Assembly: GCA_049614105.1 (NCBI GenBank)
Contig: JBMZDF010000001.1
Coordinates: forward strand, 24,338-88,337
Direction of reading: 5' to 3'
DNA length: 64,000 nt
Source of the DNA: Candidatus Promineifilaceae bacterium
GTDB taxonomy: Bacteria > Chloroflexota > Anaerolineae > Promineifilales > Promineifilaceae
Part shown: one piece after another, positions 8,291-33,789 of the stretch
How the letters are laid out: each line of letters begins with the position of its first letter
Numbering within the stretch: the stretch's first letter is position 1
The notes under the pieces: generated by a model
Told to the model about the DNA's origin: nothing
What the model saw: only the letters and a program-made list of their open reading frames with translations
The model's database searches: none
Made by a program: the position numbers and the translations under genes

Positions 8291-8302
8291 ACCTTACTTG
8301 TC

Positions 8303-12230: not shown

Positions 12231-12242
12231 AAACGGGACAAT

Positions 12243-16179: not shown

Positions 16180-16627
16180 TTATTGTTTGGTCAACATATT
16201 CCACAGAAATTGCACGGGGGATACCGTCTCGATTTCAACCGCCACTTCACCTGTCAGCGCCTCACTCAGTTCGACACTATCAGACAACACATCAATATGC
16301 GCCACAACGGAGCCATCAGTATGTGGCACAAAGCGATGCACGTAGGCTGGCAGCACGCGCAAATCATTGCCATCCGCATCTTGCAAATGCAACCGCGCAC
16401 CGACCCCTGTCATAAGCGGTGGCAGCCCGTCGTCAAACTTGGCGGTGATCAGTCCGTCTCGTGTTTGGTCAAGCTGGCCACTGACTTCGTGCAGGGCGAT
16501 GTTACCTGTGGCGAACCAAATAAGCCACGCCACAAACAGCGGCGCAACAAGCAAAAGCCCCAGCAGTCCGTTGTGATAGCTGTCGGCTTCTAACGAGCGC
16601 AGAGATCGGGTGAAAGGTAGAGACATA
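16180..16627 (-). CDS. Short HlyD-like membrane-fusion/adaptor protein
   Basis: The start is taken at MSLPFTRSL. It has one N-terminal TM (LLGLLLVAPLFVAWLIWF) and then a beta-rich region loosely resembling the HlyD C-terminal barrel. The longer track ORF to 16890 overlaps the divergent gene. Confidence 0.45.
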
Positions 16628-16682
16628 GCGCACCTAACATATCGTTTGACCGCCTTTTCAAGTCGCGCCGTTGCATTTTGAC

Positions 16683-16701
16683 CGCAACGGAAATCGTTGC
16701 G
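16683..16701. repeat. CGCAACG-N5-CGTTGCG hairpin, family copy 1
   Basis: The sequence cgcaacg gaaat cgttgcg lies in the divergent intergenic region. Confidence 0.8.
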
Positions 16702-16760
16702 TTTCAATGTGTCAAGTTGGATCGCAAAATGCTGTTGCACGGTACACTTTAGCGGTGACG

Positions 16761-18845
16761 ATGTTGCAGACAATGAGCTGGACAAAAGCCGATCTTGGCA
16801 ACGGCATACACCTTTTGGCGCAGCGGGCGGGGTTATCGGCTGGCGCGTCGAATGAGGGGAGTGTTTCGGCCGAAACAAGCACCATCCCACATCTTGCGGC
16901 TTCCCTTGGACTCACCGCACAAGCGGTGAACTGGCGCTATCGCGATTATCGCATGCTGCTCCAGCTTGCCGCGCCTGCTGTCTTGCAGGTTGAAATTTCG
17001 GCCGAAATTCGCTACCTCCTGTTGCTCCGCCGTGGGCAAAAACAAATCACACTGCTCACCCCTGACCAAAAACAGGTGCGTTTACCGATCGCAACCCTGT
17101 TAGCACCACTGCAAGCGCAAGAAGCTGGCTCGCTCGGCGCAGAGGCCGATGCGCTGCTTGCCAAAACGCAGTTGCCAAGCGACCGCATCCCAATTGCCCG
17201 CGCCGCGTTGCTGGCTGAACAGCTCAACGGCAAACAACTGTCAGGCTGCTGGCTGCTCCAACCCGCCGCAAATGCCTCCCTTTGGCAACGATTGCGGCAA
17301 ACGCGCCTCATGCGCCACCTGCTCACCATTTTTAGCACCGCCGTCACCCAACAAGCATTGACCTTGGGGGCTTGGTACATGATCGGCCGCAGCGCCCTGC
17401 GACAGCATTTTGAGCCGTTTGTGGTCGCCGCATGGATTTTATTGTTGCTCACCGTCATTCCTGTGCAAATGACGGGGCTGTGGGCGCAGTCGGTTTTGGC
17501 CCTCGACACTGGCAAATTGTTTCGCTCACGGCTGCTGCGCGGCATTCTCAATCTGCGCCCCAACGACATTCGCCATCAAGGATCGGGTCAATTTTTAGAG
17601 CGCGTGATGCAAACAGAATCGTTTCAGTCGCTGCTGCTGGGGGGGGGGCTGACCATTCTGCTTGCGTTGATACAGCTCGTTTCAGCTTTTGTTGTGCTAT
17701 CGCTCGGTGCAGGTGGATGGCTACATGCTTTCTCGCTTGCTGGCTGGATGATGCTGACTGGGCTGGTGATTGCTCGATATACTTTTGCTTACAATCGCTG
17801 GTCTGACACGTATCGCAGCCTTACCAATGATCTCGTTGAGCGTATGGTGGGGCAGCGCACGCGGCTGGCGCAAGCGTCCCAGGCAACATGGCACGTGGCG
17901 GAGGATGCCCAGCTTGAGCAGTATCAACAAACGACGCAGCAGGTTGATCGGTGGCAGTTAGTGCTGAATGCGCTTGTCAATCGTGGCTGGTTAGTTGTTG
18001 GATTGGCAGGCATTGCGCTGCCGTTTGTCAGTGAGACGCCTGATGCGACGCACCTTGCGATCAGTTTGGGCGGCATTGTGTTGGCCAGCGGGGCGCTGTC
18101 GGCTATTTCAGCAGGCGTGTTGAGTTTGGCGCGGGTGATGAAAACGTGGCGTGATATTGGCCCGCTGCTGCAAGCGGCTGCAACGTCGGCGGAAAATCGT
18201 GAGATTGTGCTTGATACGACGGCGTCGGCGGGTGGGGCGTTGGTAGTGGCGCGGGATATTGAGTTTAATTATCGGCCGAATGCCAAACCAGTTTTCAGCG
18301 GCATAAACCTTGATATTGCGCACGGCGACCGACTTCTGCTTGAAGGTGCGTCGGGCGGTGGCAAATCAACCTTCGCCAGCTTGTTGATGGGGTTGCGCCA
18401 GCCAACTTCGGGCTTGCTATTGCTGCATGGTCTTGACCAGCCAACAATGGGATTAACCAACTGGCGGCAGCGTGTTGTGGCCGCCCCGCAGTTCCACGAA
18501 AATCATATTTTGACCGAGACGTTTGCTTTTAATTTGTTGATGGGACGGCGTTGGCCCGCCACTGAGGAGGATTTGCGAGCGGCCGCGCAAATTTGCTACG
18601 AGCTAGGTCTTGGTGATCTGCTAGAACGGATGCCGAGCGGGATGCAGCAGATGATTGGCGAGGGTGGCTGGCAGTTGTCGCATGGTGAGCGGAGTCGGCT
18701 ATTTATTGCGCGAACGTTGTTGCAAAATGCCGATCTTATCGTGCTTGATGAGAGCTTTGCGGCACTCGATCCAGCTAATTTGCGGCTGGCGATTGAGTGC
18801 GTTCTGCGGCGAGCGCCAACACTGCTTGTAATTGCTCACCCCTAA
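16761..18845 (+). CDS. ABC exporter, fused TMD-NBD, partner of the C39 exporter
   Basis: It has Walker A GASGGGKST, signature LSHGERSR and Walker B LIVLDES. The start is set at MLQTMSW because the TTG-initiated extension from 16671 contains the hairpin repeat. Confidence 0.75.
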   Translation: MLQTMSWTKADLGNGIHLLAQRAGLSAGASNEGSVSAETSTIPHLAASLGLTAQAVNWRYRDYRMLLQLAAPAVLQVEISAEIRYLLLLRRGQKQITLLTPDQKQVRLPIATLLAPLQAQEAGSLGAEADALLAKTQLPSDRIPIARAALLAEQLNGKQLSGCWLLQPAANASLWQRLRQTRLMRHLLTIFSTAVTQQALTLGAWYMIGRSALRQHFEPFVVAAWILLLLTVIPVQMTGLWAQSVLALDTGKLFRSRLLRGILNLRPNDIRHQGSGQFLERVMQTESFQSLLLGGGLTILLALIQLVSAFVVLSLGAGGWLHAFSLAGWMMLTGLVIARYTFAYNRWSDTYRSLTNDLVERMVGQRTRLAQASQATWHVAEDAQLEQYQQTTQQVDRWQLVLNALVNRGWLVVGLAGIALPFVSETPDATHLAISLGGIVLASGALSAISAGVLSLARVMKTWRDIGPLLQAAATSAENREIVLDTTASAGGALVVARDIEFNYRPNAKPVFSGINLDIAHGDRLLLEGASGGGKSTFASLLMGLRQPTSGLLLLHGLDQPTMGLTNWRQRVVAAPQFHENHILTETFAFNLLMGRRWPATEEDLRAAAQICYELGLGDLLERMPSGMQQMIGEGGWQLSHGERSRLFIARTLLQNADLIVLDESFAALDPANLRLAIECVLRRAPTLLVIAHP

Positions 18846-18865: not shown

Positions 18866-19017
18866 TTGCAAAATAAACTGTATCTGCCAAAAGGCGATAA
18901 GACGTTAAAATAATGAAAAGTGATTGAAATAAATGCGATCTTGATACCAGTGTTTTTACCAAGTCGCTTAACCTGATGAAATTGTGCGCGGAACAGTTTC
19001 ACGACAAAGGAAACAAC

Positions 19018-19194
19018 ATGAAGAAAACAAAAAACAAAAAACAGGCACAGTTAAAAGTAAACACAAATGTACGTGCGGGTTTTAGCTTCAATGCATTCGT
19101 TGACAATTTGCAAGCGTTTGCTACCGATGTTGGCGACGCGGCACAGGGTGCTGTGGCTGGTGCGAAAGACGCAATAGCGGATAACGTTGTATAG
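19018..19194 (+). CDS. Small (58 aa) Lys-rich/Ala-Gly-rich peptide of unknown function
   Basis: The peptide is MKKTKNKKQAQLKVNTNVRAGFSFNAFVDNLQAFATDVGDAAQGAVAGAKDAIADNVV. An aaagga RBS lies 6 nt upstream and a 13-bp hairpin follows. Confidence 0.45.
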   Translation: MKKTKNKKQAQLKVNTNVRAGFSFNAFVDNLQAFATDVGDAAQGAVAGAKDAIADNVV

Positions 19195-19684: not shown

Positions 19685-20803
19685 ATGCAATCTCTCGATC
19701 TCGATCTGCTGTTACAAATCGCCTCACAGATTACCTGGGTCTTTTTCTCAGTCTATGTCGTCACTGTTACTATTCGGTCGGCAATTCGACACGGTATTCT
19801 GCGTGCAGGTCTCGAACTGCTGACCTTTCGCGTTCTCCTGCCGCTCATGTTGCCGATTGTTATGTCGTTGATCAGCATGTCGGTCGTTTTTGTGCATCCA
19901 CAGCAGGTTGGCGTCGTTGTGTCGATTATGCTGCCTGGTGGTGTGCGTCCAGAGGCAATGCCGGCTGGTCTGCACTTCATCATCCCTCTGATCGAATATG
20001 AGGTAATCTATCCAATTTCTTGGCAAACATATACGATGTCAAGCAAAGTCGGCGAAGGAAACGTTCTGGGCGATGACTCAATTCGCGCTCGTACAAGCGA
20101 CGGGCAGGAAGTTCTAATCGACACGTCCGTGATTTTCCGCATCGATCGCGAACAAGCCGTGACGCTTTATATCGACTGGCAAGAACGGTACATCGAAGAT
20201 TTTATGCGCCCTGTGTTGCGCGGCTATGTGCGCCGCCAAGTGTCACAATTCACGGTTGAGGAAGTTAACAGCTCATCACGGCGCGATCTTGAAGCATTAC
20301 TTGATCGCCTGTTGCTAGATGAATTTGAGGATAAAGGCTTGGTTCTCGATCAGTTTTTGTTGCGCGATATTGCGTTTTCGCCAGAGTATGCGCTAGCGGT
20401 TGAGAAGAAACAGGTGGCGCTAGAAGGGCAACAACAAACGCTGTATGAGGCACAACAAGCGATCAACATTGCCACAGGCAACGCCAGCGCGATTGAAATT
20501 GAGGCAAACGGACGGGCAACAGCGATCAAACTGGAAGCGGAAGCGGAAGCAGAGGCCTTAAAGCTGATTGCGGCAGCATTGGAAACAAACGACCAGCTAC
20601 TGACGTATGCGTATATTGAGCAACTCGCCCCCAACATTGATGTTATGTTGCTTCCAAACGACGCACCGTTCCTCTTTCCACTGCCTGACCTTAAACAAAA
20701 TGATGTGGTGACACAAACGATTACCACCACAGTCGAAGAAACGCTCGAAATCGTGCCTCCCCCATTTCTGACACCTGTGCCAGAAAATGCTATTAAGGAA
20801 TAA
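19685..20803 (+). CDS. SPFH/band-7 (prohibitin/HflC-like) membrane protein
   Basis: Two N-terminal hydrophobic segments are followed by GLHFIIPLIEYEVIYPISWQTYTM...DGQEVLIDTSVIFRI...LLRDIAFSPEYALAVEKKQVA and an Ala/Glu coiled coil. Confidence 0.8.
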   Translation: MQSLDLDLLLQIASQITWVFFSVYVVTVTIRSAIRHGILRAGLELLTFRVLLPLMLPIVMSLISMSVVFVHPQQVGVVVSIMLPGGVRPEAMPAGLHFIIPLIEYEVIYPISWQTYTMSSKVGEGNVLGDDSIRARTSDGQEVLIDTSVIFRIDREQAVTLYIDWQERYIEDFMRPVLRGYVRRQVSQFTVEEVNSSSRRDLEALLDRLLLDEFEDKGLVLDQFLLRDIAFSPEYALAVEKKQVALEGQQQTLYEAQQAINIATGNASAIEIEANGRATAIKLEAEAEAEALKLIAAALETNDQLLTYAYIEQLAPNIDVMLLPNDAPFLFPLPDLKQNDVVTQTITTTVEETLEIVPPPFLTPVPENAIKE

Positions 20804-20805
20804 GT

Positions 20806-21543
20806 ATGGAGCATAAAGCACCCCAATTGAGTCGTATCAGTCAGAAACAACTGTTGGTCGATAAATTCTTAACTTGGATGCCTGCTAGCGATGCAACCGC
20901 TTGGCTGAGAGCCTTGTCTGCAACTGAGCAGGCGACAGCCATCCACGAGATCGCCGCGTTTTGCCAAGATGCGGGCTTTGAGTTGTCGTGGGTTGTCGAA
21001 AACCAAATCGGCAATGAGCAGTTGGCCGATCTGTTGAAGCAGTCCGTGTTGCGTAGCGTCGAAACGCTGCACAGCGCCAGCATCGCGCAGCCGTTGCTAA
21101 CAACGTACACGGCACTCGTCAAATGGTTAAACAACCCGATCAAGCGTGGCTATCGTAAACAAACGCGCCAAATTTATATTCGGCTAGTCGAACAAGGCGT
21201 CATTGCAAATGCAGACGCAGCTATTTTGCTCAATAGTGACAAATTGCGCTGGGACTATGTTCAGAAAGCGCTGTTGACGGCGTACCGTGAGGACGCGGCA
21301 GCGGTTGAATCGGCCGTGCAAGCAATCATCGTTAATGAGCCAGAGGCGGCTGAAACGCCGCAGCGGGCGTGGTGGTATTTCAGCCACAGGATAACCATCA
21401 TGCCGATTGGAATTGTGGAAACAGCCCTCGTTCTAACATTGGCACGTGGCGCACAGGGGCGCATTCGCAAACGGCGGCGACGTAAACGCCGCCGACAATT
21501 TTTTCACGCTCAGCGTTCACTGAGCAAACAGGAGTCACAATGA
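20806..21543 (+). CDS. Uncharacterised paralog family X, copy 1, with a C-terminal hydrophobic segment and a poly-Arg/Lys tail
   Basis: It shares the core W(L)..L...E......FC...GF.L.WVVE.QI..E.L... and the region ...YR(K/P)(Q/K)T(R/Q)..Y..L..(Q/D)GVI with 33790, 37509(-) and 38561. Confidence 0.6.
   Translation: MEHKAPQLSRISQKQLLVDKFLTWMPASDATAWLRALSATEQATAIHEIAAFCQDAGFELSWVVENQIGNEQLADLLKQSVLRSVETLHSASIAQPLLTTYTALVKWLNNPIKRGYRKQTRQIYIRLVEQGVIANADAAILLNSDKLRWDYVQKALLTAYREDAAAVESAVQAIIVNEPEAAETPQRAWWYFSHRITIMPIGIVETALVLTLARGAQGRIRKRRRRKRRRQFFHAQRSLSKQESQ
21472..21504 (+). terminator. Intragenic GC-rich hairpin plus T-run, terminator-like, inside the poly-Arg coding segment
   Basis: cggcggcg (21472-21479) and cgccgccg (21487-21494) flank the loop acgtaaa, followed by acaa and tttttt (21499-21504). 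Confidence 0.35.
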
Positions 21544-21977
21544 TTACACTCACTTCAATCCTTACTTTTGTATCTGGCTCGCTGATTGGCGGATTCTGTA
21601 CTCGCCAGGTACGTCGCTGGCGGCAACAACGTACGGTAGTTATGCTGAAGGAACCTACCCCAAACGAGCCTATACTGACTGACCCTGTTGTAAACGCGCC
21701 TGTTTTAGAGGAGCCGACACCAAACGAGCCAGTCTTGGTTGAATCTACACCAGATGAGCCTGTTGATGTCCCTGAAGCGAAAGAGGATAATCTTCAACAA
21801 ATTGCGGGCATCGGCAGGGTCTATGCAAAACGGCTGCAAGCGGCAGGTATTCGTTCATTTGCCGATCTCGCGCAACGTACACCACAAGAAATCGTCGCTT
21901 TTGTTACAGCAAGCGGCACGCCGCAACCTAACGTTGAGCCATGGATTATTGATGCAGCACGACTTGCTGCGGCCTAA
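21540..21977 (+). CDS. Membrane-anchored Pro-rich protein with a C-terminal helix-hairpin-helix motif
   Basis: It has an N-terminal TM, EPTPNEP(I/V)L repeats, and IAGIGRVYAKRLQAAGIRSFADLA (HhH-like). Its ATGA overlaps the upstream gene. Confidence 0.6.
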   Translation: MITLTSILTFVSGSLIGGFCTRQVRRWRQQRTVVMLKEPTPNEPILTDPVVNAPVLEEPTPNEPVLVESTPDEPVDVPEAKEDNLQQIAGIGRVYAKRLQAAGIRSFADLAQRTPQEIVAFVTASGTPQPNVEPWIIDAARLAAA

Positions 21978-22017
21978 TGTTGAGTCTCTTGTTAACATCT
22001 TTTAATAACTAAAAATT

Positions 22018-23397
22018 ATGACGCTTACGCAGTCTCTAGCACCACGCCCGATCACACAGGCACGCACCGTTTTATCTCGTTGGTGGCAAAAAACGCTTGC
22101 CCCGGCTGTTGATCGACTGGTGATGGAATCGGCCGAACATAATCAGACCCTCTCTACAGCAAGCGTTGGCCTGTCTGCTGCAAGCGTTATTTTCTTCCCA
22201 CCGCTCAAGCTACTTATTGCCCCAACGTTGTTGTTGACCGCCCTACCAGCTTGTCAGACCATGATCGAAACATGGCGGCGCGACAAAGCGGTTCACAACC
22301 ATACGCTCAAGGTTTTGCTGACGGGTGGACTGATCGCGACTAATCACCTGTTAGTGGGTGCGGTTGGGACGTGGCTGCTTACCCAATGTGATAACAACAC
22401 CACTGAAACAGATGGCCCACCATTGACGTTATCGGGGTTAGCAATTGGGGTGCTGGCTTTGCCCGTTGCAGGTGTTTCAGGTGGTTTGGCCGCGTTGTTT
22501 GCCGCTGCGGGCTATGATGCGCTGAAACCAATTGCCGCCCCGCTGCATAACAAACATGACATGGTGGTGCGTAATTTGCCCGCTGCATTACGATTGCCCA
22601 CAGTGGATGTGGTGCTGCTCGATCAGAACTGTTTGGTGCAAACAGAGCTGTTGGGCGTACAAGCCTATGGTCATCATGCGCCAGATGAGATTATCTACTT
22701 CGCCATGCTGGCCGCGACGCCAACGCTGCCCGCAACATTACGCAAACATTTCCCCCAGCTTGTCCCTGACACACACCAGATCGACGTGCTGCTCAGACCA
22801 GCATTAGACACACAGGATTTTGATAGTTGCCCAGAGGCCATCGCCATGCAGCGCCTTGAAGTTGTTGTGAGCGGTCACAGCATTGGCGCACTTGATCTGA
22901 CGTATGTGCCGCTCCCGCAAGCGCGGCTGTTGCTGCACGCTTTGCGCGAAAAGGGGTTCACAACACAGCTACTGTCTAATCTATCTGAGCCGCAAACGGC
23001 TAAATTAGCGTCTGAATTTGATATAGATGCGTATCAGGCTGAGCTTTCCACCGATGATAAGCGTCTGCAAATTTTTACCTTGCAGCAGAATGGTCAAACG
23101 GTTTGTTTTATAGGACGTGAACAGGTGATCGCTTCCGATCTCACGCTGTCACTTGAAGCAGGGTCATTAGATTCGGATGTTTCGCTGTCTGAGAACGCAT
23201 TACCTCAGTTGTTGTCTCATGTTGAACAGCAGACACGGCAGCTCAATCTGTTCAAGCGGCTGCGCGTTGTGCCTGTTGCGTTGACAACGGGCAGTATCTT
23301 TTTCTTTCATTGGGGACTCCCTGCGGCGGTGACTGTGCAGGCAGTGGGGTGGTTTGGCTATCAGTTGTTGGCAGCGTCCCGGCGACGTGGTTCGTGA
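22018..23397 (+). CDS. Degenerate P-type-ATPase-like membrane protein with no actuator domain and lost catalytic motifs
   Basis: The N-terminal TM pair aligns with 10014 and 39505. The DKTGT position reads LLDQNCLVQ and the GDGxND position reads FIGREQVIASD. No TGES region is present. Confidence 0.6.
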   Translation: MTLTQSLAPRPITQARTVLSRWWQKTLAPAVDRLVMESAEHNQTLSTASVGLSAASVIFFPPLKLLIAPTLLLTALPACQTMIETWRRDKAVHNHTLKVLLTGGLIATNHLLVGAVGTWLLTQCDNNTTETDGPPLTLSGLAIGVLALPVAGVSGGLAALFAAAGYDALKPIAAPLHNKHDMVVRNLPAALRLPTVDVVLLDQNCLVQTELLGVQAYGHHAPDEIIYFAMLAATPTLPATLRKHFPQLVPDTHQIDVLLRPALDTQDFDSCPEAIAMQRLEVVVSGHSIGALDLTYVPLPQARLLLHALREKGFTTQLLSNLSEPQTAKLASEFDIDAYQAELSTDDKRLQIFTLQQNGQTVCFIGREQVIASDLTLSLEAGSLDSDVSLSENALPQLLSHVEQQTRQLNLFKRLRVVPVALTTGSIFFFHWGLPAAVTVQAVGWFGYQLLAASRRRGS

Positions 23398-23561
23398 AGC
23401 GCTTTTCTCTAATTGGTAATTATCAATTATTCATTATCCGTTGTTTTCGGCACTGTTTTGATGTGGTTACTCTGGCAATCCTAACTACCTATGAGTTGTT
23501 ACCAATTGATAACGGATAACGGATAACGACCAATGAAGCATTATCACCACTGTTGAGTGCG

Positions 23562-25406
23562 TTAACTATATAGCTCTGCAAATGCTTCACCTAGTGCTTC
23601 CTGAAAGGTGTTGCGTTCTTGCCACGTAAGTGTTTCGTACAAATGATGACGTACAAGCGGGTGTTGAAAACGGTAGCGGGCGTAGCGTTGTCGATTGATG
23701 ATGAGCGGTTGTTGCTCGATGAGGAGACGATAGCGGCGCACCAGTTCTCCCAGTTGGTGTGCAAGCGTTTGCGAGGTGATGTGACAAACTGTGCCAATGG
23801 CATCAGCGGTAAACTCCTCACCTTCGACGCTGGCGGCACGCAACAGATAACAGAGTGATTCGGGCAAAACACCAACCCAACGTGTTAGGAGGGCTTCGAT
23901 TTCGGCCGAAACTAAATCCTCCCAAACCACATCCTTCACCAACATCCACGCCCCTTTACTATCACGCTCTACATAAGATTGAGCCTGTAACGTGCGCCAT
24001 ACCTGCACCACAATGGCAGGATGCCCACACGTAAAACGGTAAAACTGTCTGCGAAAAGCAAACGGTAGTGTATTTGGCTCGTTATCAAGCTTGGCATCTA
24101 TAAACCTTAAACCGTCCTGTTGCCACACCGCATCGAGATCAATCATGGCACTGTGTTGGGCTTGTAGCACAGGCGTCACATCCCAATGTGAGCGATAGGA
24201 ACCGATCAACATAATCTGCTGCGATCCAAGACGGGTTGCAAGCTGTTCAAAAAGCAACTGTGATGCGGTATCGGCCCACTGCAAATCGTCTATGACCAAA
24301 AGCAACGTTGTGCGCTGAACCATTGTTTCCAGCAGTTGGATCAGTTGAGATATGGTTGGGTAGGTGTTTTGCGGCCAGTTTAACCCAAGCTGTGCAAATA
24401 GGTGTTGTACAGAGGTATAGGGCTGTGTCCCGTTTTGTTGGCACGCTGTTTTTGCGCTGATTAATGTGCTGTGGGCCAAGATCGCCTGTTCGGTGAAGGT
24501 GTGTAACAGGCAGCTTTTGCCGCTGCCCGTTTGCCCTTTGATAAGAGCTAGCTGACCTTGCCCATGTCGTGTTTGGGTCAGCAGTTGGGTAAGCTGGTCA
24601 AGCTGGGTGTCTCGGCCGAGACAGCGGCTTATTTCGGCCGATTGTGTTTCGCCCATAGCAGGCAGCGGCGGGAGTTTTCCAAGTTTGATCTGATTGTAGA
24701 GCGTGGATGTTTCAGCCGAAACATCCACATCAACCTCTCTCCGCAGCGCCGTCACACAGCGATCATACTGCGCGATGGCCCCCGCCATATCTCCGTTACG
24801 CGCCTTGATTTCCATCAATAGCCGATGCCCGCCCTCATGATACGGTTGAAGCTGTAGCAGACGGGCCGCCGCTGCTTCTGTCTCATCCGTTCGCTGCTGC
24901 ACCCAATAACGATGCGCCACCACCAACCACCCCTTGAGCGCCAGTTGATACAGTCGCTCACGTTGTGTAATGACCCACTGCTCAAAAATTGGCGCATCTG
25001 GGACATAGAACTGCTGTAGAAAGTCGCCCTGATATTGTTGCAATGCATGGTGTAAAGTCGGTAGTGCGATCTGATGCAGATTGCCCGTCAACACCCGCTC
25101 AAACAGTGCAACATCGACCAGATGCGGCAACGTAACGTTAAACTCAACTGTATGGTGAGAAATAAGCAGGGTTTTGGGAAGATGTTGGCGCAACGATGGG
25201 AGAACATTACGCAGGTTTTTCTTGGCTTGAGCTGCGTCTGCGCTTGACCAGAACATTTTGCCAAGAAAATCACGTGCATGAATGCCTTTACACAAAGCGG
25301 TGTAGTAAAGCAGCGCCTGCGCCTTTTTCGGCAGCCGTTGTTGTCGCTGTTGTTCACCCCATGTAATTGTTGGCTCGCCTAACTGGCGAATGTACAGTTC
25401 ATCCAT
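23562..25406 (-). CDS. SARP-type regulator: OmpR-like wHTH, BTAD and a P-loop ATPase
   Basis: The N-terminal winged-helix region is followed by BTAD-like helices (...LLQLQPYHEGGHRLLMEIKARNGDMAGAIAQYDRCVTALRREV) and Walker A GQTGSGKS. Confidence 0.75.
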   Translation of the reverse strand: MDELYIRQLGEPTITWGEQQRQQRLPKKAQALLYYTALCKGIHARDFLGKMFWSSADAAQAKKNLRNVLPSLRQHLPKTLLISHHTVEFNVTLPHLVDVALFERVLTGNLHQIALPTLHHALQQYQGDFLQQFYVPDAPIFEQWVITQRERLYQLALKGWLVVAHRYWVQQRTDETEAAAARLLQLQPYHEGGHRLLMEIKARNGDMAGAIAQYDRCVTALRREVDVDVSAETSTLYNQIKLGKLPPLPAMGETQSAEISRCLGRDTQLDQLTQLLTQTRHGQGQLALIKGQTGSGKSCLLHTFTEQAILAHSTLISAKTACQQNGTQPYTSVQHLFAQLGLNWPQNTYPTISQLIQLLETMVQRTTLLLVIDDLQWADTASQLLFEQLATRLGSQQIMLIGSYRSHWDVTPVLQAQHSAMIDLDAVWQQDGLRFIDAKLDNEPNTLPFAFRRQFYRFTCGHPAIVVQVWRTLQAQSYVERDSKGAWMLVKDVVWEDLVSAEIEALLTRWVGVLPESLCYLLRAASVEGEEFTADAIGTVCHITSQTLAHQLGELVRRYRLLIEQQPLIINRQRYARYRFQHPLVRHHLYETLTWQERNTFQEALGEAFAELYS

Positions 25407-25549
25407 TGTTGTCGCCTGGATATATTGTGGGGCAAGGTTAACGCCTCGTATAGACTCTTAACGCAACTAGAGCGCAACGAAGTCTTGCTATCTACAAGGA
25501 TTGGGAGTTATATGCCCTGAGCTGACTGATTTTCCAGCGAAAAGATAGG

Positions 25550-26560
25550 CTAACTATGAATGCTTGTCAAATTGTGTTTGAGGGCAAACTTGACAAGGCC
25601 AGGGAGGTGAGAAATATTTAGCTTGCGCATAATATGAGCGCGATGGGTGCGGATGGTGACGTCGCTTAAGCTAAGCTGGATACCAATCTGGGCGGTTGTG
25701 TCGCCGTTACATAACAAGCTCAAAACCTCGCGCTCGCGTTCTGACAAACCAGCGAGTGCTGTAGATTCGGCATTGAGGGGGTTATTTTCGGCCGAACGAG
25801 GCGCAACCACAATCCCGTGCAAGTACCGCTGCATCTGATCCGCCCGCTGCCACACAGTTTGTAATAAATCAATGCTTCTACGATTTGTTGAGCTGTGCGC
25901 CGTTAAACTTTGAGTCGCTAAGTGCAAGTCAGTTGTTATAGCCGTTAAGTTGTCGAGCAACTGTTGATTAATAATATTAGCTAGCTCTAACTGCGTCATC
26001 GGCCGCGTTTGTAAAAGCTGGCTTGTGAAAGAATAGAGCTGTTGATTTTGCTCTTGTAGCAATCGCAACAGTTGTTCTTTCTCTAGCTGCTGCTGACAAC
26101 GTAACTCGATTTCAGCCTGTAACTCAGCCGTTTTGGCTGTCACTGTTTCTTCGAGCTGTTCGTTTGTTGTTATCAATACCTGCTGTAGGGTCGCAAGCGT
26201 GATATGAGTGCGGATGCGGGCCAAAACGTCCGCTGCGTTAACTGGCTTCGTGATGTAATCGACCCCTCCTGCCTCGAACCCCATTAGGCGATCGTCCGTA
26301 TCAGTTAGAGCAGAAAGAAACAGGATAGGCGTGTTGGCAATATCTGGGTTGGCTTTAATGGCACGACACGTCTCATAGCCGTTCATGCCTGGCATTCGTA
26401 CATCAAGCAAAATCAGATCGGGGCGTGCTTGTGCCGCCAGTTCAACGGCATCAATGCCGTTTCCTGCGGCGAGTATGTGGTATTCCTCTGAATCTAAATA
26501 GTCAAAAAGAACAGCGAGATTAGCAAGGTTATCATCAACGACCAGAAGTGTATGTTTCAT
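25550..26560 (-). CDS. Response regulator: REC, coiled coil and a LuxR-type HTH
   Basis: MKHTLLVVDD...LILLDVRMPGMNGYE...ILFLSALTD...GGVDYITKPV is a REC domain. The C-terminus LSEREREVLSLLCNGDTTAQIGIQLSLSDVTIRTHRAHIMRKL is a LuxR-type HTH. Confidence 0.8.
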   Translation of the reverse strand: MKHTLLVVDDNLANLAVLFDYLDSEEYHILAAGNGIDAVELAAQARPDLILLDVRMPGMNGYETCRAIKANPDIANTPILFLSALTDTDDRLMGFEAGGVDYITKPVNAADVLARIRTHITLATLQQVLITTNEQLEETVTAKTAELQAEIELRCQQQLEKEQLLRLLQEQNQQLYSFTSQLLQTRPMTQLELANIINQQLLDNLTAITTDLHLATQSLTAHSSTNRRSIDLLQTVWQRADQMQRYLHGIVVAPRSAENNPLNAESTALAGLSEREREVLSLLCNGDTTAQIGIQLSLSDVTIRTHRAHIMRKLNISHLPGLVKFALKHNLTSIHS

Positions 26561-26976
26561 ATTGTAGATTGTGTTGCGGTGGTTTCTTCTGCAAGCCACT
26601 AACATCGTTTGTGTATACAGAACGAGCGGAGCAGGATCAATGCTTGTGTGCTAAATGTCGGGTATTCGGCCGAAATTGTTTCCAACACGCCTTTTACCCC
26701 AGAAATATCCCTAGTTCCCCAGTTAATGCAACTGTAGCCGTCACGCAACGGATGGGAGGGTAAGCGTTTATTCTGGAGTTTTGTTGTCTGGATGATAGGT
26801 TTATTCGATGTGGAGCAATGCTTAGTTCGTATCTAGCAACTATTCTATAAAATGGATTAGGTGAAAAGTCGTTGGTCGCCAGCGTTCGGACAGATAAATT
26901 CAATCAGTTTCGTATAATGTGGTTTGTATCATAATAAGGGGGCGTCGTCTGTAGGGCTATTTTCGGCCGAGTTCAC

Positions 26977-26995
26977 CGCAACGAATATCGTTGCG
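26977..26995. repeat. CGCAACGA-N3-TCGTTGCG hairpin, family copy 3
   Basis: The sequence cgcaacga ata tcgttgcg lies in the intergenic region upstream of 27084. Confidence 0.8.
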
Positions 26996-27083
26996 ATAGA
27001 CAGGCCTTTCTCGTCTGTTAAATCAATCAATAAGGCGGTTGGCCTCTACCCTCCTAGGGTAGACCTACCCGCAATGATTCCAA

Positions 27084-29300
27084 TTGTGCGCTGTAAAAGC
27101 TCACCACTATTGCATGTACTTGTTTTTCCTGTTTGCTGTTCTTGCACTCATGGTGCTCGTTTCGATTGTCACTCTTGATGCAAAAGAGGCTGCACTCGGT
27201 CGCCTAGGCTGGCGCATTGGATTTCTGTTGCTGTTCATCATTGGTGGATTGGTTGGCGTGCGCTATTCAATCACACGTGCCGTTCCCTGTTTTCCAGATT
27301 GCACAGGTATTAATTTTTTAGATCGCAACTTCAGTGAACGCGACTTTACCAGTGGTAATTTCGTGGACTCTTACATGCCGCGCGTCGATTTTAGCAATGC
27401 AGATCTACGCAATAGCGACTTTTCGGGTGCAAACCTTCGGCACAGTGATTTTAAGGGCGCAGATTTGCGATTCACTTTTTTCATTGGGACTGATTTGGAA
27501 AGCGCCGATTTGGGTGCGGCTCAATTGCAAAATGCATCGTTTCAAGGGGCAGATTTAACCGAGAGCAATTTGGCAGGTGTGAATCTCTCACAGACCGATT
27601 TATCAGGTGCAATACTCAACCGAGCCACGTTGGTTGGTGCAGATTTGTCGGGTGCGCGGCTTACAGGAATTGAGTTGCGTGGCGCAGATTTAAGTGGCGC
27701 AGATTTAAGTGGCGCACAGCTTGCTGGTGCATCTTTGAGCGAGGCAAATCTAAGCGGCGCGGATTTAAGCGGTGCTAATTTGCAAGGCACATTCATAAAC
27801 CTTGCCACCCTAACTGGAGCCGATTTGACCGATGCGAAATTAGCAGGGGCGAGTCTGATCGGCACCGATTTATCATCGGTGAATTTACGGCGTGCCGAGC
27901 TAGTCGGTGCGCTCATTATGGGCGCTCGATTTGACGGGGCCGATTTACGCGGCGCACAGCTTCGTTATATGCGCGATGTCGATCAGGTTACGCCCGAAGA
28001 TTTAGAACTGGACCCTGTACTTGCGGGTATGAACGCCCTTCAACGCGAAGCGATCACCGTCCCTAGCCGTCTTGAGGGCATTGTTGTGGATGCCAACACG
28101 CTTGCCCCGGCCGAACTATTGCCTGCTGTTGCCCAAGTAGCCGAAGATACGACAGAGCGACAGGTTAATGTCGCTATTTTGCATTCTGTTAGCGGCGATT
28201 TGGCGTTTGGGGAATCGGCCGTGCTCGATGCAACGCTGCTTGCCATCCGCGAGATCAACGCGGCAGGTGGCATCTTGGGACGCAAGATCGTGCCAATTGT
28301 TGAAGATGGGGCTAGCGACCCAAGAGTGTTTGCAGAGAAAACAACCAAATTGTTAGAAATCGACGAAGTAGACGTGATGTTTGGCGTCTCAACAACCGCC
28401 AGTCGCAAGGCAATCATTCCTATCTTAGATAAAAACAGCAGTTTGCTTTTCTATCCCACACAGCACGAAGGGTTGGAAGTATCTGACAATATTATTTACA
28501 TGGGCGCTGACCCATCTCAGCAAATTGTGCCAACCATTGAATACCTTTTAGCGGAAGGGTTTGAAACCTTTTTCTTGATCGGCTCAGATCGTGAATATGC
28601 CCACATTGCCCACCCGCTTATCAAAGCACAGCTTGCCAATGCGGGTGCAGAGGTCACTGGTGAAGTGCTGGTTCCCCTTAAAAACACAAACTTAGCGGCT
28701 GCCGTGCGCGAAATCGCCTTTTTGAAACCAGCCGTTGTCATCAATACGCTGGTTGGCGTTTCCAACAAAGCTTTTTTTGAAGCTTTTGCCGAAGAACGCA
28801 TCGCACCGACATCGTTGCCGATCATATCGTTTGGCATGGGTGAAACAGAGGTACAGGAGGTGGGCGTTGAATTTGTTGCGGGTCATTTGATTGCTGCCAG
28901 CTATTTTCAGACGGTTAACACCATTGAGAATTTCACATTTGTCGATGCCTATAAAGAAACACACGGGCGAGAGTCGGTTACCTCAGATGCGATTATGTAT
29001 GGGTATGCGTCTGTCTATTTGTGGGAAGCCTTGGTTCGACAAGCGCGGTCTTTTGATGTGGAGGCGATCAAACAAGTAGTTGAGGAAATCCCCATTGAGT
29101 TAGAAACGCCCAACGGGATGATCCAGCTTGATGCTGAGACAAAGTATATTGCCAAACCGTTACGCATCGGCCGAATTCGGGATGATGGTCTAATCGAAGA
29201 GATATTTACCACAGGGAACCTGATCGCCCCCGACCCGTTTCTGACAGAGTACGATTGGGCCGAGGAAATAGTAACCCTTTTGTTGGAGGAAGAAGAATGA
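27084..29300 (+). CDS. Membrane protein fusing a long pentapeptide-repeat array to a type-1 periplasmic-binding (AmiC/UrtA/Liv-like) domain
   Basis: Two TM segments are followed by ~40 A(D/N)LxG-type pentapeptides. After these comes VNVAILHSVSGDLAFGESAVLDATLLAIREINAAGGILGRKIVPIVEDGASDP..., typical of PBP1 amide/urea/branched-chain binders. The exact start is uncertain. Confidence 0.7.
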   Translation: MCAVKAHHYCMYLFFLFAVLALMVLVSIVTLDAKEAALGRLGWRIGFLLLFIIGGLVGVRYSITRAVPCFPDCTGINFLDRNFSERDFTSGNFVDSYMPRVDFSNADLRNSDFSGANLRHSDFKGADLRFTFFIGTDLESADLGAAQLQNASFQGADLTESNLAGVNLSQTDLSGAILNRATLVGADLSGARLTGIELRGADLSGADLSGAQLAGASLSEANLSGADLSGANLQGTFINLATLTGADLTDAKLAGASLIGTDLSSVNLRRAELVGALIMGARFDGADLRGAQLRYMRDVDQVTPEDLELDPVLAGMNALQREAITVPSRLEGIVVDANTLAPAELLPAVAQVAEDTTERQVNVAILHSVSGDLAFGESAVLDATLLAIREINAAGGILGRKIVPIVEDGASDPRVFAEKTTKLLEIDEVDVMFGVSTTASRKAIIPILDKNSSLLFYPTQHEGLEVSDNIIYMGADPSQQIVPTIEYLLAEGFETFFLIGSDREYAHIAHPLIKAQLANAGAEVTGEVLVPLKNTNLAAAVREIAFLKPAVVINTLVGVSNKAFFEAFAEERIAPTSLPIISFGMGETEVQEVGVEFVAGHLIAASYFQTVNTIENFTFVDAYKETHGRESVTSDAIMYGYASVYLWEALVRQARSFDVEAIKQVVEEIPIELETPNGMIQLDAETKYIAKPLRIGRIRDDGLIEEIFTTGNLIAPDPFLTEYDWAEEIVTLLLEEEE

Positions 29301-30271
29301 AACAGTTCAGTTTACTCTGCTTCCTGCTTTTGTTGATTGCCTGTGGCAACAACACCTTGCAGTTGCCCGCAGGATGCCCGCCAGCCTGCAACGGCATTAA
29401 CTTGCGGGGGCGCAACTTGCAAGGGGCAGATTTAGCAGGTGCAGATTTACAAAAAGCGAACCTTGCACGCGCCAATTTGCGAAATGCACAGCTTGCGGGG
29501 GCAAATTTAAGTGGCGCAAATTTAGACCAGGCGGTACTCTCGCAGGCCGATCTGACAGAGACAAACTTTACAGGCGCATCAATGGTAAAGGCGACTTTAA
29601 CCAGTGCGATATTAGATGGCACAATTTTGGCAAGCACCGATTTAACAGAGGCGACGCTTACACGTGTGGATCTGACTTCGGCCGATTTGACAGCCATCAC
29701 GCTTAGAAGTACACGACTTATCGGCGCACGCCTGTTTGGTGTCGATCTTAGCGGGGCCGATTTGCGGCAGGCCAATCTGACGGGGGCAAACCTAACGGGG
29801 GCCAATCTTTCAGGGGCCAACCTTAGCACCGACGACGAGCGACAAGATGGCGCAGACCTCAGCGGGGCCGATCTACGCAGCGTCAATTTGAACGGTGCAA
29901 ACCTGACCCGCGCACGGCTGCGCGGCACGCTTTTCGACAACGCCTCACTCATTGAAGCGATTCTACATGCCAATCTATCTGGTGCGCGTATGATCAATGC
30001 CGACCTCAGCAACGCCAATATGGAAGCGGGCATTTTCAGCGGTGTCGATCTAACACGTGCGACGCTCAATGGGGCGCAGCTAGAGGGCGCTTTGCTCAAC
30101 GGCACAAATCTACACGGCGCATCACTTCAAGAGGCGACACTTATTACACGTGAAGGCAACACGATAGAAATAGTCAACCTTAGCGGCGCTCATTATGATT
30201 CTGAGACACGCTGGACGACAGGATTCGCCCCACCACCCATCGCAATTTTTGATGCCGACCCCACAGAATAA
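29297..30271 (+). CDS. Pentapeptide-repeat lipoprotein
   Basis: MKQFSLLCFLLLLIACGNN is a lipobox-type signal, followed by continuous pentapeptide repeats. Its ATGA overlaps the upstream gene. Confidence 0.75.
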   Translation: MKQFSLLCFLLLLIACGNNTLQLPAGCPPACNGINLRGRNLQGADLAGADLQKANLARANLRNAQLAGANLSGANLDQAVLSQADLTETNFTGASMVKATLTSAILDGTILASTDLTEATLTRVDLTSADLTAITLRSTRLIGARLFGVDLSGADLRQANLTGANLTGANLSGANLSTDDERQDGADLSGADLRSVNLNGANLTRARLRGTLFDNASLIEAILHANLSGARMINADLSNANMEAGIFSGVDLTRATLNGAQLEGALLNGTNLHGASLQEATLITREGNTIEIVNLSGAHYDSETRWTTGFAPPPIAIFDADPTE

Positions 30272-30273
30272 TT

Positions 30274-31488
30274 ATGAGCACTCGTCGCAAGCTACTTATC
30301 TGGTTGTTTCTAAGCATCATCACGGCCATAGGGGCAACCGCGATTTATCGCCAGGTGCAGCCAACAACTGGCGAAGATGGTGCTTCGGCCGTGTCGGATG
30401 ACCCCACTGTTGCAGAAGAACAAGACACATCGGCGTTACGCTCTAACGTCGAACAAATTCAAGAGCAGCTACAGGATTGGGTTGTAGAAGTACGCGCTTT
30501 AGTTTTGTCAGAGGAGCCGATCGGCACAACCACAGAAGGCTCCCTTGTTATTTACAGCACGGCATTTGAAGAGTCGCTGATTAACTACATCACGGCATTC
30601 CGCACAAAGTACCCCGAAATCACGATCACCTATGAGTTGATGGAGATTGCTGAATTAACGGCCCGCGTAACGGCGGAGAGGGACGACCCATATGCGGATG
30701 TGCTTTGGGGTGTACCTGCTACAACTGTTCAATGGCTTGCGTGGCAGGATACGCTTGCCGCTTATGCTCCCTCGCATGTTCAAAAGCTGCCGCTCTCGTT
30801 TCGTGACAATCTGACCCCCCCAGAGTGGGTTGGATTCGCTGCGTGGATGAATGCTATTTGCGTCAACAAACAGATGTTGCAAGCGGCAGGGCTTCCCATT
30901 CCTAAAACATGGGCGGACTTAACTGACCCACAATATCAAGATATGATCTTGATGCCAAACCCTAAAGCGTCTCAAACGGGGTATTTGGCCTTACAAGCTT
31001 TCATAGATTTATATGGTGAAGTTGACGCTTGGGCGTTTATGGATTTGCTCGACAAAAATATTCGCGCCTATCCTGACTCAGCGACAGGGTCATGCAGGGC
31101 GGTGGGCGATGGTGACGTGCCGATTGCTATTTCATACGCATTTGTGGCCACAGAACAGGCTAAAGAAATAGAATCTGCTATTGCAGTCTTTCCCAGCGAG
31201 GGCACAGGATGGGAAATAGAAGCTGCGGGTCTCATTCGCAAGTTTCCTGTCAAGCCTGCCGCGATGACTTTGATGGACTTTATTATTAGCGAAGAGGCGA
31301 TGCACGAGTATGGTCAAAGCTTTGCTGTTACCGCCATCGAATTAGACTATTTACGAGTTCCAGTTGGGTATCCTGAGGAGCCTAGCGCCATTCTGGTTAA
31401 AAAGGATTTTACGTGGGCAAGTGCAAACAGTACCCGTTTGTTAGATGAGTGGCAGCAGCGCTATGAACGGTCGGCCCAAGAACCGTAA
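30274..31488 (+). CDS. Orphan ABC-type extracellular solute-binding protein (family-1, Fe3+/polyamine-like) with no permease or ATPase nearby
   Basis: It has an N-terminal anchor. LVIYSTAFEESLINYITAFRTKYPEITITYELMEIAELTARVTAERDDPYADVLWGVPATT has the SBP family-1 signature architecture. Confidence 0.65.
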   Translation: MSTRRKLLIWLFLSIITAIGATAIYRQVQPTTGEDGASAVSDDPTVAEEQDTSALRSNVEQIQEQLQDWVVEVRALVLSEEPIGTTTEGSLVIYSTAFEESLINYITAFRTKYPEITITYELMEIAELTARVTAERDDPYADVLWGVPATTVQWLAWQDTLAAYAPSHVQKLPLSFRDNLTPPEWVGFAAWMNAICVNKQMLQAAGLPIPKTWADLTDPQYQDMILMPNPKASQTGYLALQAFIDLYGEVDAWAFMDLLDKNIRAYPDSATGSCRAVGDGDVPIAISYAFVATEQAKEIESAIAVFPSEGTGWEIEAAGLIRKFPVKPAAMTLMDFIISEEAMHEYGQSFAVTAIELDYLRVPVGYPEEPSAILVKKDFTWASANSTRLLDEWQQRYERSAQEP

Positions 31489-31506
31489 GGATGGAGTAAC
31501 GAGGCA

Positions 31507-33756
31507 GTGAAGTTTTTTAGAGACCTCAAAATCCGAACAAAAGTTACAATGCTTTTGTTTACCGTTGTAATCATCGCCTTTCTGGCCGTAAGCAGTATTG
31601 CTTGGTTTACGACCCGTTCGGTTTTGCAAACGGATGCTTTTAACCAGATTACGAGTGTGCGTGAAGTGCGGAAAGATGAGATCGAGCGTTATTTCAAAAC
31701 ACTGCGCAGTGAGTTGCAGTTGTTGTCGCAGGACGAAAATATCATCGATGCGATGCAGACATTGCACGCAGGTTTTATTGAGCTGGAAAATGTTGTTATT
31801 TCGGCCGAACAAGAAACCAATCTCAACAACTTCTACGACAGTGAGTTTTTGCAAAAGCTAGAAGCGAACATGCGGCGTGATTTATCAATTGAGGACTATC
31901 GGCCGCAGGGAAATGTGGCCGCTTACCTACAGTATCACTATCTTGCAAACAACCCGAATCCCACTGGCGAAAAACACCTGCTCGACCAAGCGGACGACGA
32001 CAGCAGCTACAGCAACGCACACGCTCGCTACCATCCGTTGCTGCGCACCTTTCTCGATCTTTTCCAATATTACGATCTCTTCCTCATAGACCCAGAAACA
32101 CGCACTATTGTCTATTCTGTGTTCAAGGAAGTGGACTATGCATCCAACCTGATCGATGGTCCCTATGCAACAAGCGGTCTTGGCGAGGCGGTTGACCGCA
32201 TACTAGAAAATCCTGACCCAGCACGGATTGATGTGGTTGATTTCCGTGCATATGATCCGTCAGCACAAGCCCCTGCTATGTTTTTGGGCATGTCACTTTA
32301 TGCGGGTGAAACATTGATCGGCGTGCTGGTTATTCAAGCCCCAGTTGACGAGATTGATCAAGTGATGACCAGTGGGCAAGCATGGGAAGAAAAAGGTCTA
32401 GGGGTGAGCGGTGAAACCTATCTGGTCGGAGCCGACCACCTTATGCGCTCCATGTCCCGTTTTTTAATCGAGGACAAATTAGGCTATTTGCAGGCGCTGC
32501 GTAACGCGGACACGAATCAAGAACAGATCGACCTGATCGCCAATCTCGAAACATCAATTTTGCAGCAAGAAGTGAACACGGCGTCTGTTGAATTGGCGCT
32601 AGCGGGTCAGGATGGCGTCCACATTGTCAACGATTACCGTGGCGTAGCCGTGTTGAGTGCCTATGCGCCTGTTGAAATCGAAGGCTTCGACTGGGTGATT
32701 TTAGCCGAAATAGATGAGGCTGAAGTGTCGCAACCCATTATTAAGCAGCAGCGTTTCTTTCTGATGAGTGCGGGGGGCTTTGCGGTTGTGCTCAGCATTT
32801 TGTCCTATGTTGCCGTCAATTTGTTGATGCGCCCTATCGGCCGTCTCGTCGACAGGCAAAAGCGCGTTCGTGAAGGGGATTTTGAAACGCTTGTCCCGAC
32901 GAACTCGGCCGATGAAGTCGGCATCTTAACGTCATCATTTAATCAAATGGTTGAGAGCCTGCATGCACAACGCAGCGAACTCAAAAAACAGATCGGCGCA
33001 AATGATCGCTTGATGCTCAGCATTTTGCCTGATTCAATCGTGACACGTGTCAAACAGGGTGAGAAAAATATCGCGGAGCCAGTTGGTCAGGTAACGCTGT
33101 TGTTTGCCCGTTTGCGTGGTTTGTATGCGATGGAGACACGTTTTGAAGATGACAAGCACATCGCCCAATTGCTCAATCTGTTGTCTAACGAGTTAAATCG
33201 TGCGGCTGATACAGTTGGTGTGGTGAGACAGCCCGCTGTAAGCAATCGTTACACGTTTACCTGTGGTTTAGACGATGCTGCGCCCGATCACACAGAGCGA
33301 ACTATCAAATTGGCGTTGATGATGCGCAAACTGCTCAAAACGTTTAACGAACAGCACGGCACGCAATTAGCGGCCCAAATTGGGATTCACACGGGGCGTG
33401 TGTTGGCGACTGTTTCTGAAACACGCAAGCTGCATTTTGATTTGTGGGGAACAACTGTTGCCATCACAGACTCTATCGTGTCGATGGCGGCATCGGATGA
33501 GCTTTTAGTCTCACATGAGGTATACCAAAAGCTGCGTTTGGCGTATGATTTTGAGCAGCATGAGCCAGTTCTGTTGGAAAACGGGACGATATGGCGTGTG
33601 TGGCGGTTTGTGCCGTCGATAGAAGATGATATTTCGGCCGAATTAGCTACCGAAAACCTCAACCAAATATTAGCGCAAACTGGCACAGCGCTCACGTTAC
33701 CCGCTTCGATAAAGCCACGGCGCAGACGTCTGTGGAGACGATTTGTGCAGAAGTGA
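31507..33756 (+). CDS. Double-Cache-like sensor, HAMP and a class III cyclase-homology domain with substituted catalytic residues
   Basis: The architecture is TM, a ~370-aa extracytoplasmic region, TM, then HAMP (RPIGRLVDRQ...DEVGILTSSFNQMVESL). In the CHD, FADIxGFT reads FARLRGLY, the GD position reads SNRY, and GDTVNxASR reads GTTVAITDS. Confidence 0.7.
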   Translation: MKFFRDLKIRTKVTMLLFTVVIIAFLAVSSIAWFTTRSVLQTDAFNQITSVREVRKDEIERYFKTLRSELQLLSQDENIIDAMQTLHAGFIELENVVISAEQETNLNNFYDSEFLQKLEANMRRDLSIEDYRPQGNVAAYLQYHYLANNPNPTGEKHLLDQADDDSSYSNAHARYHPLLRTFLDLFQYYDLFLIDPETRTIVYSVFKEVDYASNLIDGPYATSGLGEAVDRILENPDPARIDVVDFRAYDPSAQAPAMFLGMSLYAGETLIGVLVIQAPVDEIDQVMTSGQAWEEKGLGVSGETYLVGADHLMRSMSRFLIEDKLGYLQALRNADTNQEQIDLIANLETSILQQEVNTASVELALAGQDGVHIVNDYRGVAVLSAYAPVEIEGFDWVILAEIDEAEVSQPIIKQQRFFLMSAGGFAVVLSILSYVAVNLLMRPIGRLVDRQKRVREGDFETLVPTNSADEVGILTSSFNQMVESLHAQRSELKKQIGANDRLMLSILPDSIVTRVKQGEKNIAEPVGQVTLLFARLRGLYAMETRFEDDKHIAQLLNLLSNELNRAADTVGVVRQPAVSNRYTFTCGLDDAAPDHTERTIKLALMMRKLLKTFNEQHGTQLAAQIGIHTGRVLATVSETRKLHFDLWGTTVAITDSIVSMAASDELLVSHEVYQKLRLAYDFEQHEPVLLENGTIWRVWRFVPSIEDDISAELATENLNQILAQTGTALTLPASIKPRRRRLWRRFVQK

Positions 33757-33789
33757 TACCAACCCAAATTGGCATCAACTTGATCCCTT

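Follow-up and report, generated by a model that had tools for sequence, protein, structure and literature searches.

P1B-type ATPases, such as CopA, ZntA, CadA, and HMA4, are the closest described relatives of a set of unusual membrane proteins encoded by Candidatus Promineifilaceae bacterium (Chloroflexota). The stretch of DNA analyzed here, referred to as the window, comprises 64,000 nucleotides (assembly GCA_049614105.1, contig JBMZDF010000001.1, positions 24,338 to 88,337 of the forward strand) and lies on a 91-kb contig of a metagenome-assembled genome (MAG). It encodes two truncated P-type ATPase homologs, denoted pseudo-ATPase A (locus tag ACPG8W_00170) and pseudo-ATPase B (locus tag ACPG8W_00225), and a full-length paralog, denoted C. 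The P1B pumps give the best sequence and fold matches and have in common with these proteins the MA/MB and M1–M6 membrane scaffold and the core of the phosphorylation (P) domain. Unlike the P1B pumps, A and B have no actuator domain, no functional nucleotide-binding (N) domain, and no DKTGT motif. C and its clade differ from P1B pumps in lacking an HMA domain and the cysteine tripeptide of the fourth transmembrane (TM) helix, TM4, where NSHF[K/R]Y[R/K] is found instead.

Other described systems offer partial parallels. KdpB of the P1A-type KdpFABC complex shows that a bacterial P-type ATPase can function solely as part of a hetero-oligomeric membrane complex, and it is also a structural match. 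KdpB is active and its partners are unrelated proteins, whereas the candidate partner here is the pump's own paralog, apparently dead. Pseudoenzyme partners are known from heterodimeric ABC exporters with a degenerate nucleotide-binding site and from pseudokinases. A and B resemble these in that a seemingly dead paralog is kept under selection beside an active one, but whole domains have been excised from A and B rather than inactivated by point changes. The P domain of B has, like the KdsC-type capless (C0) phosphatases, a capless Rossmann-like haloacid dehalogenase (HAD) fold; unlike KdsC, its catalytic motifs are incomplete and it sits between TM helices. Searches of the literature returned nothing relevant on FUPA, truncated, or actuator-less P-type ATPases, on P-type pseudoenzymes, or on DUF4332, and no description of dead, domain-excised P-type ATPase paralogs under selection was found in the searchable literature.

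The three proteins and their diagnostic motifs are located as follows.

22018–23397, + strand: pseudo-ATPase A, 459 residues, homolog of the full P-type ATPase C
22621–22635, + strand: DQNCL, residues 202–206 of A, at the DKTGT position (regular expression, alignment)
23113–23139, + strand: GREQVIASD, residues 366–374 of A, at the GDGxND position (regular expression, alignment)
39505–40971, + strand: pseudo-ATPase B, 488 residues, homolog of C
40300–40314, + strand: NTDLL, residues 266–270 of B, at the DKTGT position (regular expression, alignment)
40540–40557, + strand: GDGITD, residues 346–351 of B, motif-IV-like and retained (regular expression, alignment)
10014–12230, + strand: C, full-length C-type P-type ATPase, 738 residues, with TGES, DKTGT, HP, SGD, and GDGIND
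11118–11138, + strand: NSHFRYR, residues 369–375 of C, the TM4 motif where P1B pumps have CPC or SPC (116-sequence alignment)

The original prediction placed these three open reading frames (ORFs) at the same positions and aligned the two shorter products with C, and both statements hold. BLASTP aligns A with C at 32% identity over 127 residues (E = 7e-8), and B with C at 27% identity over 158 residues (E = 9e-13) and again at 25% over 108 residues (E = 1e-5). The loss of the actuator domain, with its TGES motif, is likewise borne out. PF00122 (E1-E2_ATPase, actuator) is matched by neither protein in a Pfam search, and a 37-sequence alignment leaves 0 residues at the actuator position of A and, with the core deleted, 27 in B, compared with 111 in C. 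In the same alignment the N-domain position, 121 residues in C, holds an 89-residue N-like insert in A that is devoid of the HP and GxG ATP-binding motifs, and 5 residues in B, where the N domain is deleted entirely. Because B has no N domain, the earlier description of a retained P/N-domain scaffold is true of A only.

The motif replacements listed above match those first read from the sequence, and no intact catalytic motif overlooked through mis-registration was found in A or B by regular expression or alignment. A keeps an aspartate at the phosphorylation position (Asp202). B has asparagine there; the aspartate is kept in almost all relatives of B, and motif IV is degenerate in many of them (SSNAEN, GVDEQD, GARDEP). 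At the TM4 position of the P1B cysteine tripeptide, A has AAGY, B has SFGAH, and C has HFRY, none of which is a Cys motif. Profile scores follow the same division. C exceeds the TIGR01525 cutoff of 346.25 bits with 396.7 bits, while B reaches 51.4 and A reaches 21; for TIGR01494 (cutoff 62.3 bits), B scores 23.3 and A has no match in the NCBIfam search. PF00702 (Hydrolase) is sub-threshold for both proteins, the two scores being 18.1 and 15.4 bits against a cutoff of 26.4. With no actuator domain, no usable N domain, and no DKTGT (nor, in A, GDGxND), both proteins would be unable to bind ATP, autophosphorylate, or cycle between E1 and E2, and we infer from motifs and models that they are catalytically dead.

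What remains is a recognizable pump scaffold, consisting of TM helices and a P-domain core in A, and a P1B-like TM helix set with a capless P domain in B. AlphaFold2 (AF2) models have a predicted local distance difference test (pLDDT) score of 88.5 and a predicted template modeling (pTM) score of 0.81 for A, and 90.7 and 0.84 for B, confidence that is owed in part to the many full-length homologs in the input alignments. Foldseek relates the membrane-plus-P-domain fold of both to ZntA, CopA, and KdpB with a probability of 1.00, and the best matches overall in the PDB are ZntA, CopA, CadA, HMA4, and KdpB. The top match of A is ZntA (4umw, E = 2e-14). B matches CopA (4bbj, E = 3e-10), with CopA (7r0g) and HMA4 (8q74) at query-normalized TM-scores of 0.64–0.67, and its ranks 43–49 are KdsC-type phosphatases, which match the capless P domain. 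The helices between M1 and M4 of A are ambiguous in the AF2 model, with two short helices and one of 30 residues.

Neither protein is alone. For A, a word-indexed homolog search returned A itself only, and an exhaustive HMMER search against 1.84 billion representatives recovered a small family. Its full-length members are P0019 (475 residues, 37% identity, E = 7e-66), P0020 (469 residues), and P0022 (506 residues), with E values from 7e-66 to 1e-39; P0021 is a partial sequence. Behind them lies a second tier of ~230 full-length pumps, whose similarity to A is limited to its C-terminal half. The relatives of A have a clean actuator-domain deletion in common. Four of the five family proteins carry DQ[S/N]CL and P0022 carries DDSCL, the aspartate being invariant. 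The lysine of the PxxK position (Lys348 in A) is also invariant in A and its relatives, and the acidic Mg-binding GDGxND is gone across the family, with [G/S]R in its place in most members. A DNA-pattern search for A-type genes found one GTDB species genome, the Ardenticatenaceae MAG whose contig is locus L012, and none in JGI metagenomes; its fixed 75-residue spacing misses members like P0021 and P0022.

The B family is larger, with 11 close relatives from the first search and 19 metagenome loci, and it contains three grades. Full-length pumps such as P0013 form the first. The delta-N grade (560–605 residues) keeps the actuator domain and has lost the N domain and KTGT, and the delta-A delta-N grade (400–490 residues) includes B. 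As the N-like insert is kept in the A family and absent from every B-family member, domain parsimony implies that the actuator domain must have been lost at least two times independently.

A and B are intact genes under purifying selection. Ratios of nonsynonymous to synonymous substitution (dN/dS), estimated by the Nei–Gojobori method, are 0.09–0.27 among B-family pairs at dS 0.8–2.3, including 0.26 at dS 1.2 for the short-form pair of loci L002 and L008. These are comparable to the adjacent full-length pumps, at 0.11–0.34 with dS 1.1–1.8. For the A family the ratio is only rough, ~0.2–0.37, because dS is saturated (>2.2 or undefined); the ORF of A and 31–37% identity nevertheless survive where synonymous sites have been randomized. 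The original prediction favored a new non-pump function over decay. The relatives with intact ORFs, and dN/dS well below 1 where dS is measurable, agree with that preference, and orthologs of the same architecture carry no pseudogene signature.

Conservation within the families is distributed differently from that in active pumps. Mean pairwise identity in C-type pumps is 0.66–0.73 in the P domain, 0.59 in the actuator domain, 0.51 in the N domain, and 0.32–0.45 in the TM segments. In the A and B families, MA–MB and M3–M4, together with M1–M2 and M5–M6 of B, stand at 0.45–0.57, and the second part of the P domain at 0.34; M1–M2 and M5–M6 of the A family stand at 0.34 and 0.39. Constraint is thus inverted relative to active pumps, the membrane helices of the pseudo-pumps being more conserved than their P domain. 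The B family also has a strongly conserved polar M5–M6 motif (invariants FD..DITTT..H..Y.....Y), which C-type pumps lack.

C is predicted to be the catalytically competent clade member in the window. Regular expressions place its motifs at residues 278 (TGES), 416 (DKTGT), 570 (SGD), and 616 (GDGIND), and Pfam assigns E1-E2_ATPase (6.8e-33) and Hydrolase (6.2e-25). Neither an HMA domain nor a CPx motif was found in C, in line with the earlier remark that even the intact paralog lacks the CPx metal site. A 116-sequence alignment shows conserved catalytic motifs and the C-type TM4 consensus L-N-S-H-F-[K/R/G]-Y-[R/K]. At least 2,605 proteins among the candidates scored are C-type at E ≤ 1e-60, all automatically named heavy-metal or Cu2+ ATPases. 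Subtypes P1B-1 to P1B-7 are all defined by a Cys-containing TM4 tripeptide, namely CPC, SPC, PCP, SCA, or CSC (PMC13460109), which leaves the C-type pumps outside that classification. A soft metal is an unlikely substrate, and the heavy-metal and Cu2+ annotation of the clade is probably wrong, since TM4 has no metal-binding motif.

Several minor observations concern the same clade. Its named hosts are all filamentous (Promineifilaceae, Ardenticatenaceae, Caldilinea, Ca. Electrothrix, Thiotrichaceae, Crenothrix, Thiolinea, and Ca. Entotheonella), a pattern that is anecdotal. A third truncated class adjoins C-type pumps and consists of ~225–330 residues with N-terminal TM helices and the actuator, matching PF00122 only (L001, 7934–8929; L034, 1673–2461). 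Sulfotransferases, a sulfatase, and type I and III polyketide synthases recur in the flanks of B-type and C-type genes (L006, L002, L004, L008, L035), as do acyl-CoA ligases, a halogenase, and VTT/DedA proteins. These neighbors hint at an anionic sulfated lipid or polyketide as a possible C-type cargo.

A partnership between pump and pseudo-pump is supported mainly by the adjacency of B-type and C-type genes. In nine of ~19 distinct loci, one to three full-length C-type ATPases are encoded within 10 kb of a B-type gene. In the closest cases the two abut or overlap, with an 8-nucleotide gap in L006, 30-nucleotide gaps in L017 and L018, and 4-nucleotide overlaps in L027/L028 and L030. The A-type genes have a different and fixed setting. 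A small helix-hairpin-helix protein (HHH), the A-type protein, and a convergently encoded STAND regulator form a triad at each of the four A-type loci (the window, L010, L012, and L013).

Taken together, A and B are selected, domain-deleted and, by sequence and fold, catalytically dead derivatives of a cysteine-less clade of P1B-like pumps, and they probably serve as non-catalytic membrane partners or scaffolds rather than as pumps. They would act through the membrane domain as non-catalytic subunits, whether as partner, regulator, or scaffold. The likely partners of B-type proteins are the full-length C-type pumps with which their genes are often co-transcribed, and the likely context of A-type proteins is the fixed module with the small HHH protein and the SARP/STAND regulator. 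Both lie inside a conserved island that also holds a C39-ABC peptide exporter, an SPFH protein, proteins of an unnamed family (family X), and a cyclase sensor. The original prediction had suggested a sensor or scaffold; such a role can be inferred, and the evidence favors, more specifically, a non-catalytic subunit in the membrane that is associated with the full-length paralogs. A bolder proposal, speculative and rather improbable, would make the pseudo-pumps obligate subunits, themselves non-catalytic, of a new hetero-oligomeric class of P-type ATPases. Its catalytic C-type subunit, with the basic NSHF[K/R]Y[R/K] site in TM4, would transport a non-metal and possibly anionic cargo, for example a sulfated lipid or polyketide, or else a peptide, and the whole system would be linked to the export of GG-leader peptides and to signaling.

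Several facts weigh against the partner or scaffold role. It is built from sequence, fold, and synteny, the AF2 confidence being owed in part to homologs and the A-family dN/dS being rough, as stated above. The adjacency evidence is weaker for short forms like B, for which the recurrent neighbor is a VTT/DedA protein (L008, L031) and the neighborhoods are variable (L002, L008). No full-length pump is encoded within 10 kb of several long forms (L001, L004, L029), and within the window A is 10 kb and B 27 kb from C, neither being adjacent. A keeps Asp202, a serine at motif II, and Lys348, by which residual phosphate or ligand binding is possible.

The most serious rival, possible though less favored, is that A and B work autonomously in the membrane, as a sensor, channel, or carrier, with no catalytic P-type partner. 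An A-type protein could, for example, serve as the membrane input of the SARP/STAND regulator with HHH as adaptor. The invariable triad fits this, as do the visible flanks of L010, L012, and L013, which encode no full-length pump, the missing nearby pump at several B-type loci, and the finding that the most conserved stretch of the B family is the M5–M6 motif that C-type pumps do not have. Yet translationally coupled pairs of pseudo-pump and full-length pump, seen in at least five loci, are hard to explain in this way. The visible A-type flanks are moreover short (8 kb in L010 and 2 kb in L013), and the window does have a C-type pump in the same island.

A retained, non-canonical chemistry of the P domain is still less probable. 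The P domains might act as capless HAD-type phosphatases or be phosphorylated in trans, given the aspartate found at the phosphorylation position of every A-family and nearly every B-family protein, the invariant Lys348 in A and its relatives, the GDGITD kept in B, and the KdsC-like fold of its P domain. However, no family has a complete motif set: A-type proteins have no motif IV acidic residues, the nucleophile of B is an asparagine, motif IV is degenerate among the relatives of B, and the +2 residue of motif I is not conserved. The second part of the P domain is also among the least conserved regions. Least credible of all is that A and B are decaying pseudogenes or artefacts of assembly or annotation of a full-length pump gene. 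Their sub-threshold Pfam and NCBIfam scores and the solitary result of the word-indexed search with A could be read that way. Decay is contradicted by the low dN/dS (<0.3), by ORFs that stay intact despite saturated synonymous divergence, and by full-length relatives of the same architecture, and the same in-frame deletions recur in independent NCBI, ENA, Logan, and JGI assemblies. A scan of the window found no stray coding remnants of actuator or N domains, and the gene flanks are too tight to hold the missing domains.

P-type ATPases belong to the most thoroughly studied membrane pumps. Should A- or B-type proteins indeed partner active pumps, the superfamily would gain its first pseudoenzyme subunits. 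The two types would also provide a natural experiment in which a membrane domain and P-domain core persist with the catalytic cycle apparently gone. The comparison exposes a large pump clade that is probably mis-annotated, makes the hypothesis of a hetero-oligomer of pump and dead paralog testable, and defines a conserved uncharacterized island of C39-ABC exporter, small peptide, SPFH, family X, HHH, cyclase sensor, SARP/STAND, and real and pseudo-pumps. The genes of this island and of the surroundings of B are arranged in the window as follows.

12243–13088, + strand: VTT/DedA-family membrane protein, encoded immediately after C; a VTT/DedA gene likewise follows the B-type genes of L008 and L031
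13429–16167, − strand: C39-peptidase ABC exporter, 48% identical to its L001 counterpart
16671–18845, + strand: second ABC protein of the conserved island
18976–19194, + strand: 72-residue peptide with LKVNTNVRAG, a motif common to small ORFs in L012, L001, and L006
19685–20803, + strand: SPFH/Band_7 protein, first gene of the SPFH–family X–HHH–A run, 65% identical to its L012 counterpart
20806–21543, + strand: family X paralog 1, overlapping the HHH gene by 4 nucleotides
21540–21977, + strand: HHH, a small helix-hairpin-helix (DUF4332-like) protein with a hydrophobic N-terminal segment; its gene immediately precedes the A-type gene at each of the four A-type loci
23562–25406, − strand: SARP-like BTAD and AAA_16 STAND regulator, facing the A-type gene convergently at each of the four A-type loci
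27084–33756, + strand: block of pentapeptide/PBP, pentapeptide, SBP, and Cache-HAMP-cyclase genes, syntenic with L012
33790–34431, + strand: family X paralog 2, after the cyclase as in L012
37509–38273, − strand: family X paralog 3
38555–39166, + strand: family X paralog 4, upstream of B
41177–42124, + strand: ParA/MinD-like ATPase, downstream of B

The run from SPFH to A is compact, with a 2-nucleotide gap, a 4-nucleotide overlap, and a 40-nucleotide gap between successive genes. The contig of L012, from an uncultured Ardenticatenaceae MAG, holds the same gene set as the window from 16.6 to 34.4 kb: ABC, small peptide, SPFH, pentapeptide/PBP, pentapeptide, SBP, Cache-HAMP-cyclase, two family X genes, HHH, A-type, and STAND. 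Protein identities range from 65% (SPFH) down to 31% (A), and the co-occurrence with family X and SPFH genes that the original prediction proposed to examine is found in this synteny. A run of C39-ABC, ABC, SPFH, family X, and PentaPBP is also present in L001, which encodes the delta-N protein P0008. One block rearrangement separates window positions 19685–34431 from L012 positions 460–13244, the island being otherwise collinear. In the window, SPFH and PentaPBP flank the famX–HHH–A–STAND(–RR) block, whereas in L012 the block follows the cyclase and family X genes. On the side of B, a run of family X paralog 4, HHH, and ParA lies among C-type ATPases in L031.

The four family X paralogs of the window match nothing in Pfam or NCBIfam, and the same is true of the ORFs o16180 and o8397. 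The family X protein at 20806–21543 has a predicted C-terminal TM segment followed by an Arg-rich tail, RIRKRRRRKRRRQ. Family X genes adjoin pumps, pseudo-pumps, and SPFH genes in L001, L012, L025, L027, and L031. Promoter and terminator scans around A gave no more than shuffle expectation, and no clear Shine-Dalgarno sequence was seen near A. PADLOC defense-system models matched none of A, B, family X, HHH, SPFH, or ParA; two STAND proteins match weakly, at ~20 bits.

The small ORFs of the island, 56–72 residues long, share L-x-V-[R/N]-T-x-[L/I/V]-R-[G/A]-G (window 18976–19194; L012 140–310; L001 12401–12604; L006 14812–15027). They lie between or beside C39-ABC, ABC, and SPFH genes or C-type pumps. 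By sequence, peptides of the LKVNTNVRAG type are probable GG/AG-leader substrates of the C39-ABC exporter. The 236-residue protein at 16180–16890 (− strand) has homologs of 143–164 residues beside ABC and ATPase genes in L001, L006, and L008. Its gene overlaps, on the opposite strand, the TTG codon annotated as the start of the ABC gene at 16671; the true start of that ABC gene is probably further downstream.

Outside the island, window positions 230–6021 encode a 1433-residue protein with a clostripain-like (Peptidase_C11) domain, then a 486-residue FHA-domain protein. Positions 48123–59206 hold a class II lanthipeptide cluster with LanM (DUF4135 and LANC_like), DUF7005, an HlyD-like protein, a LanT-like C39-ABC protein, and a 978-residue ABC protein. 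The 90-residue lanthipeptide precursor, at 51332–51604 (− strand), ends in ELEQIAGGRGICICTRGCTFTKKEKA.

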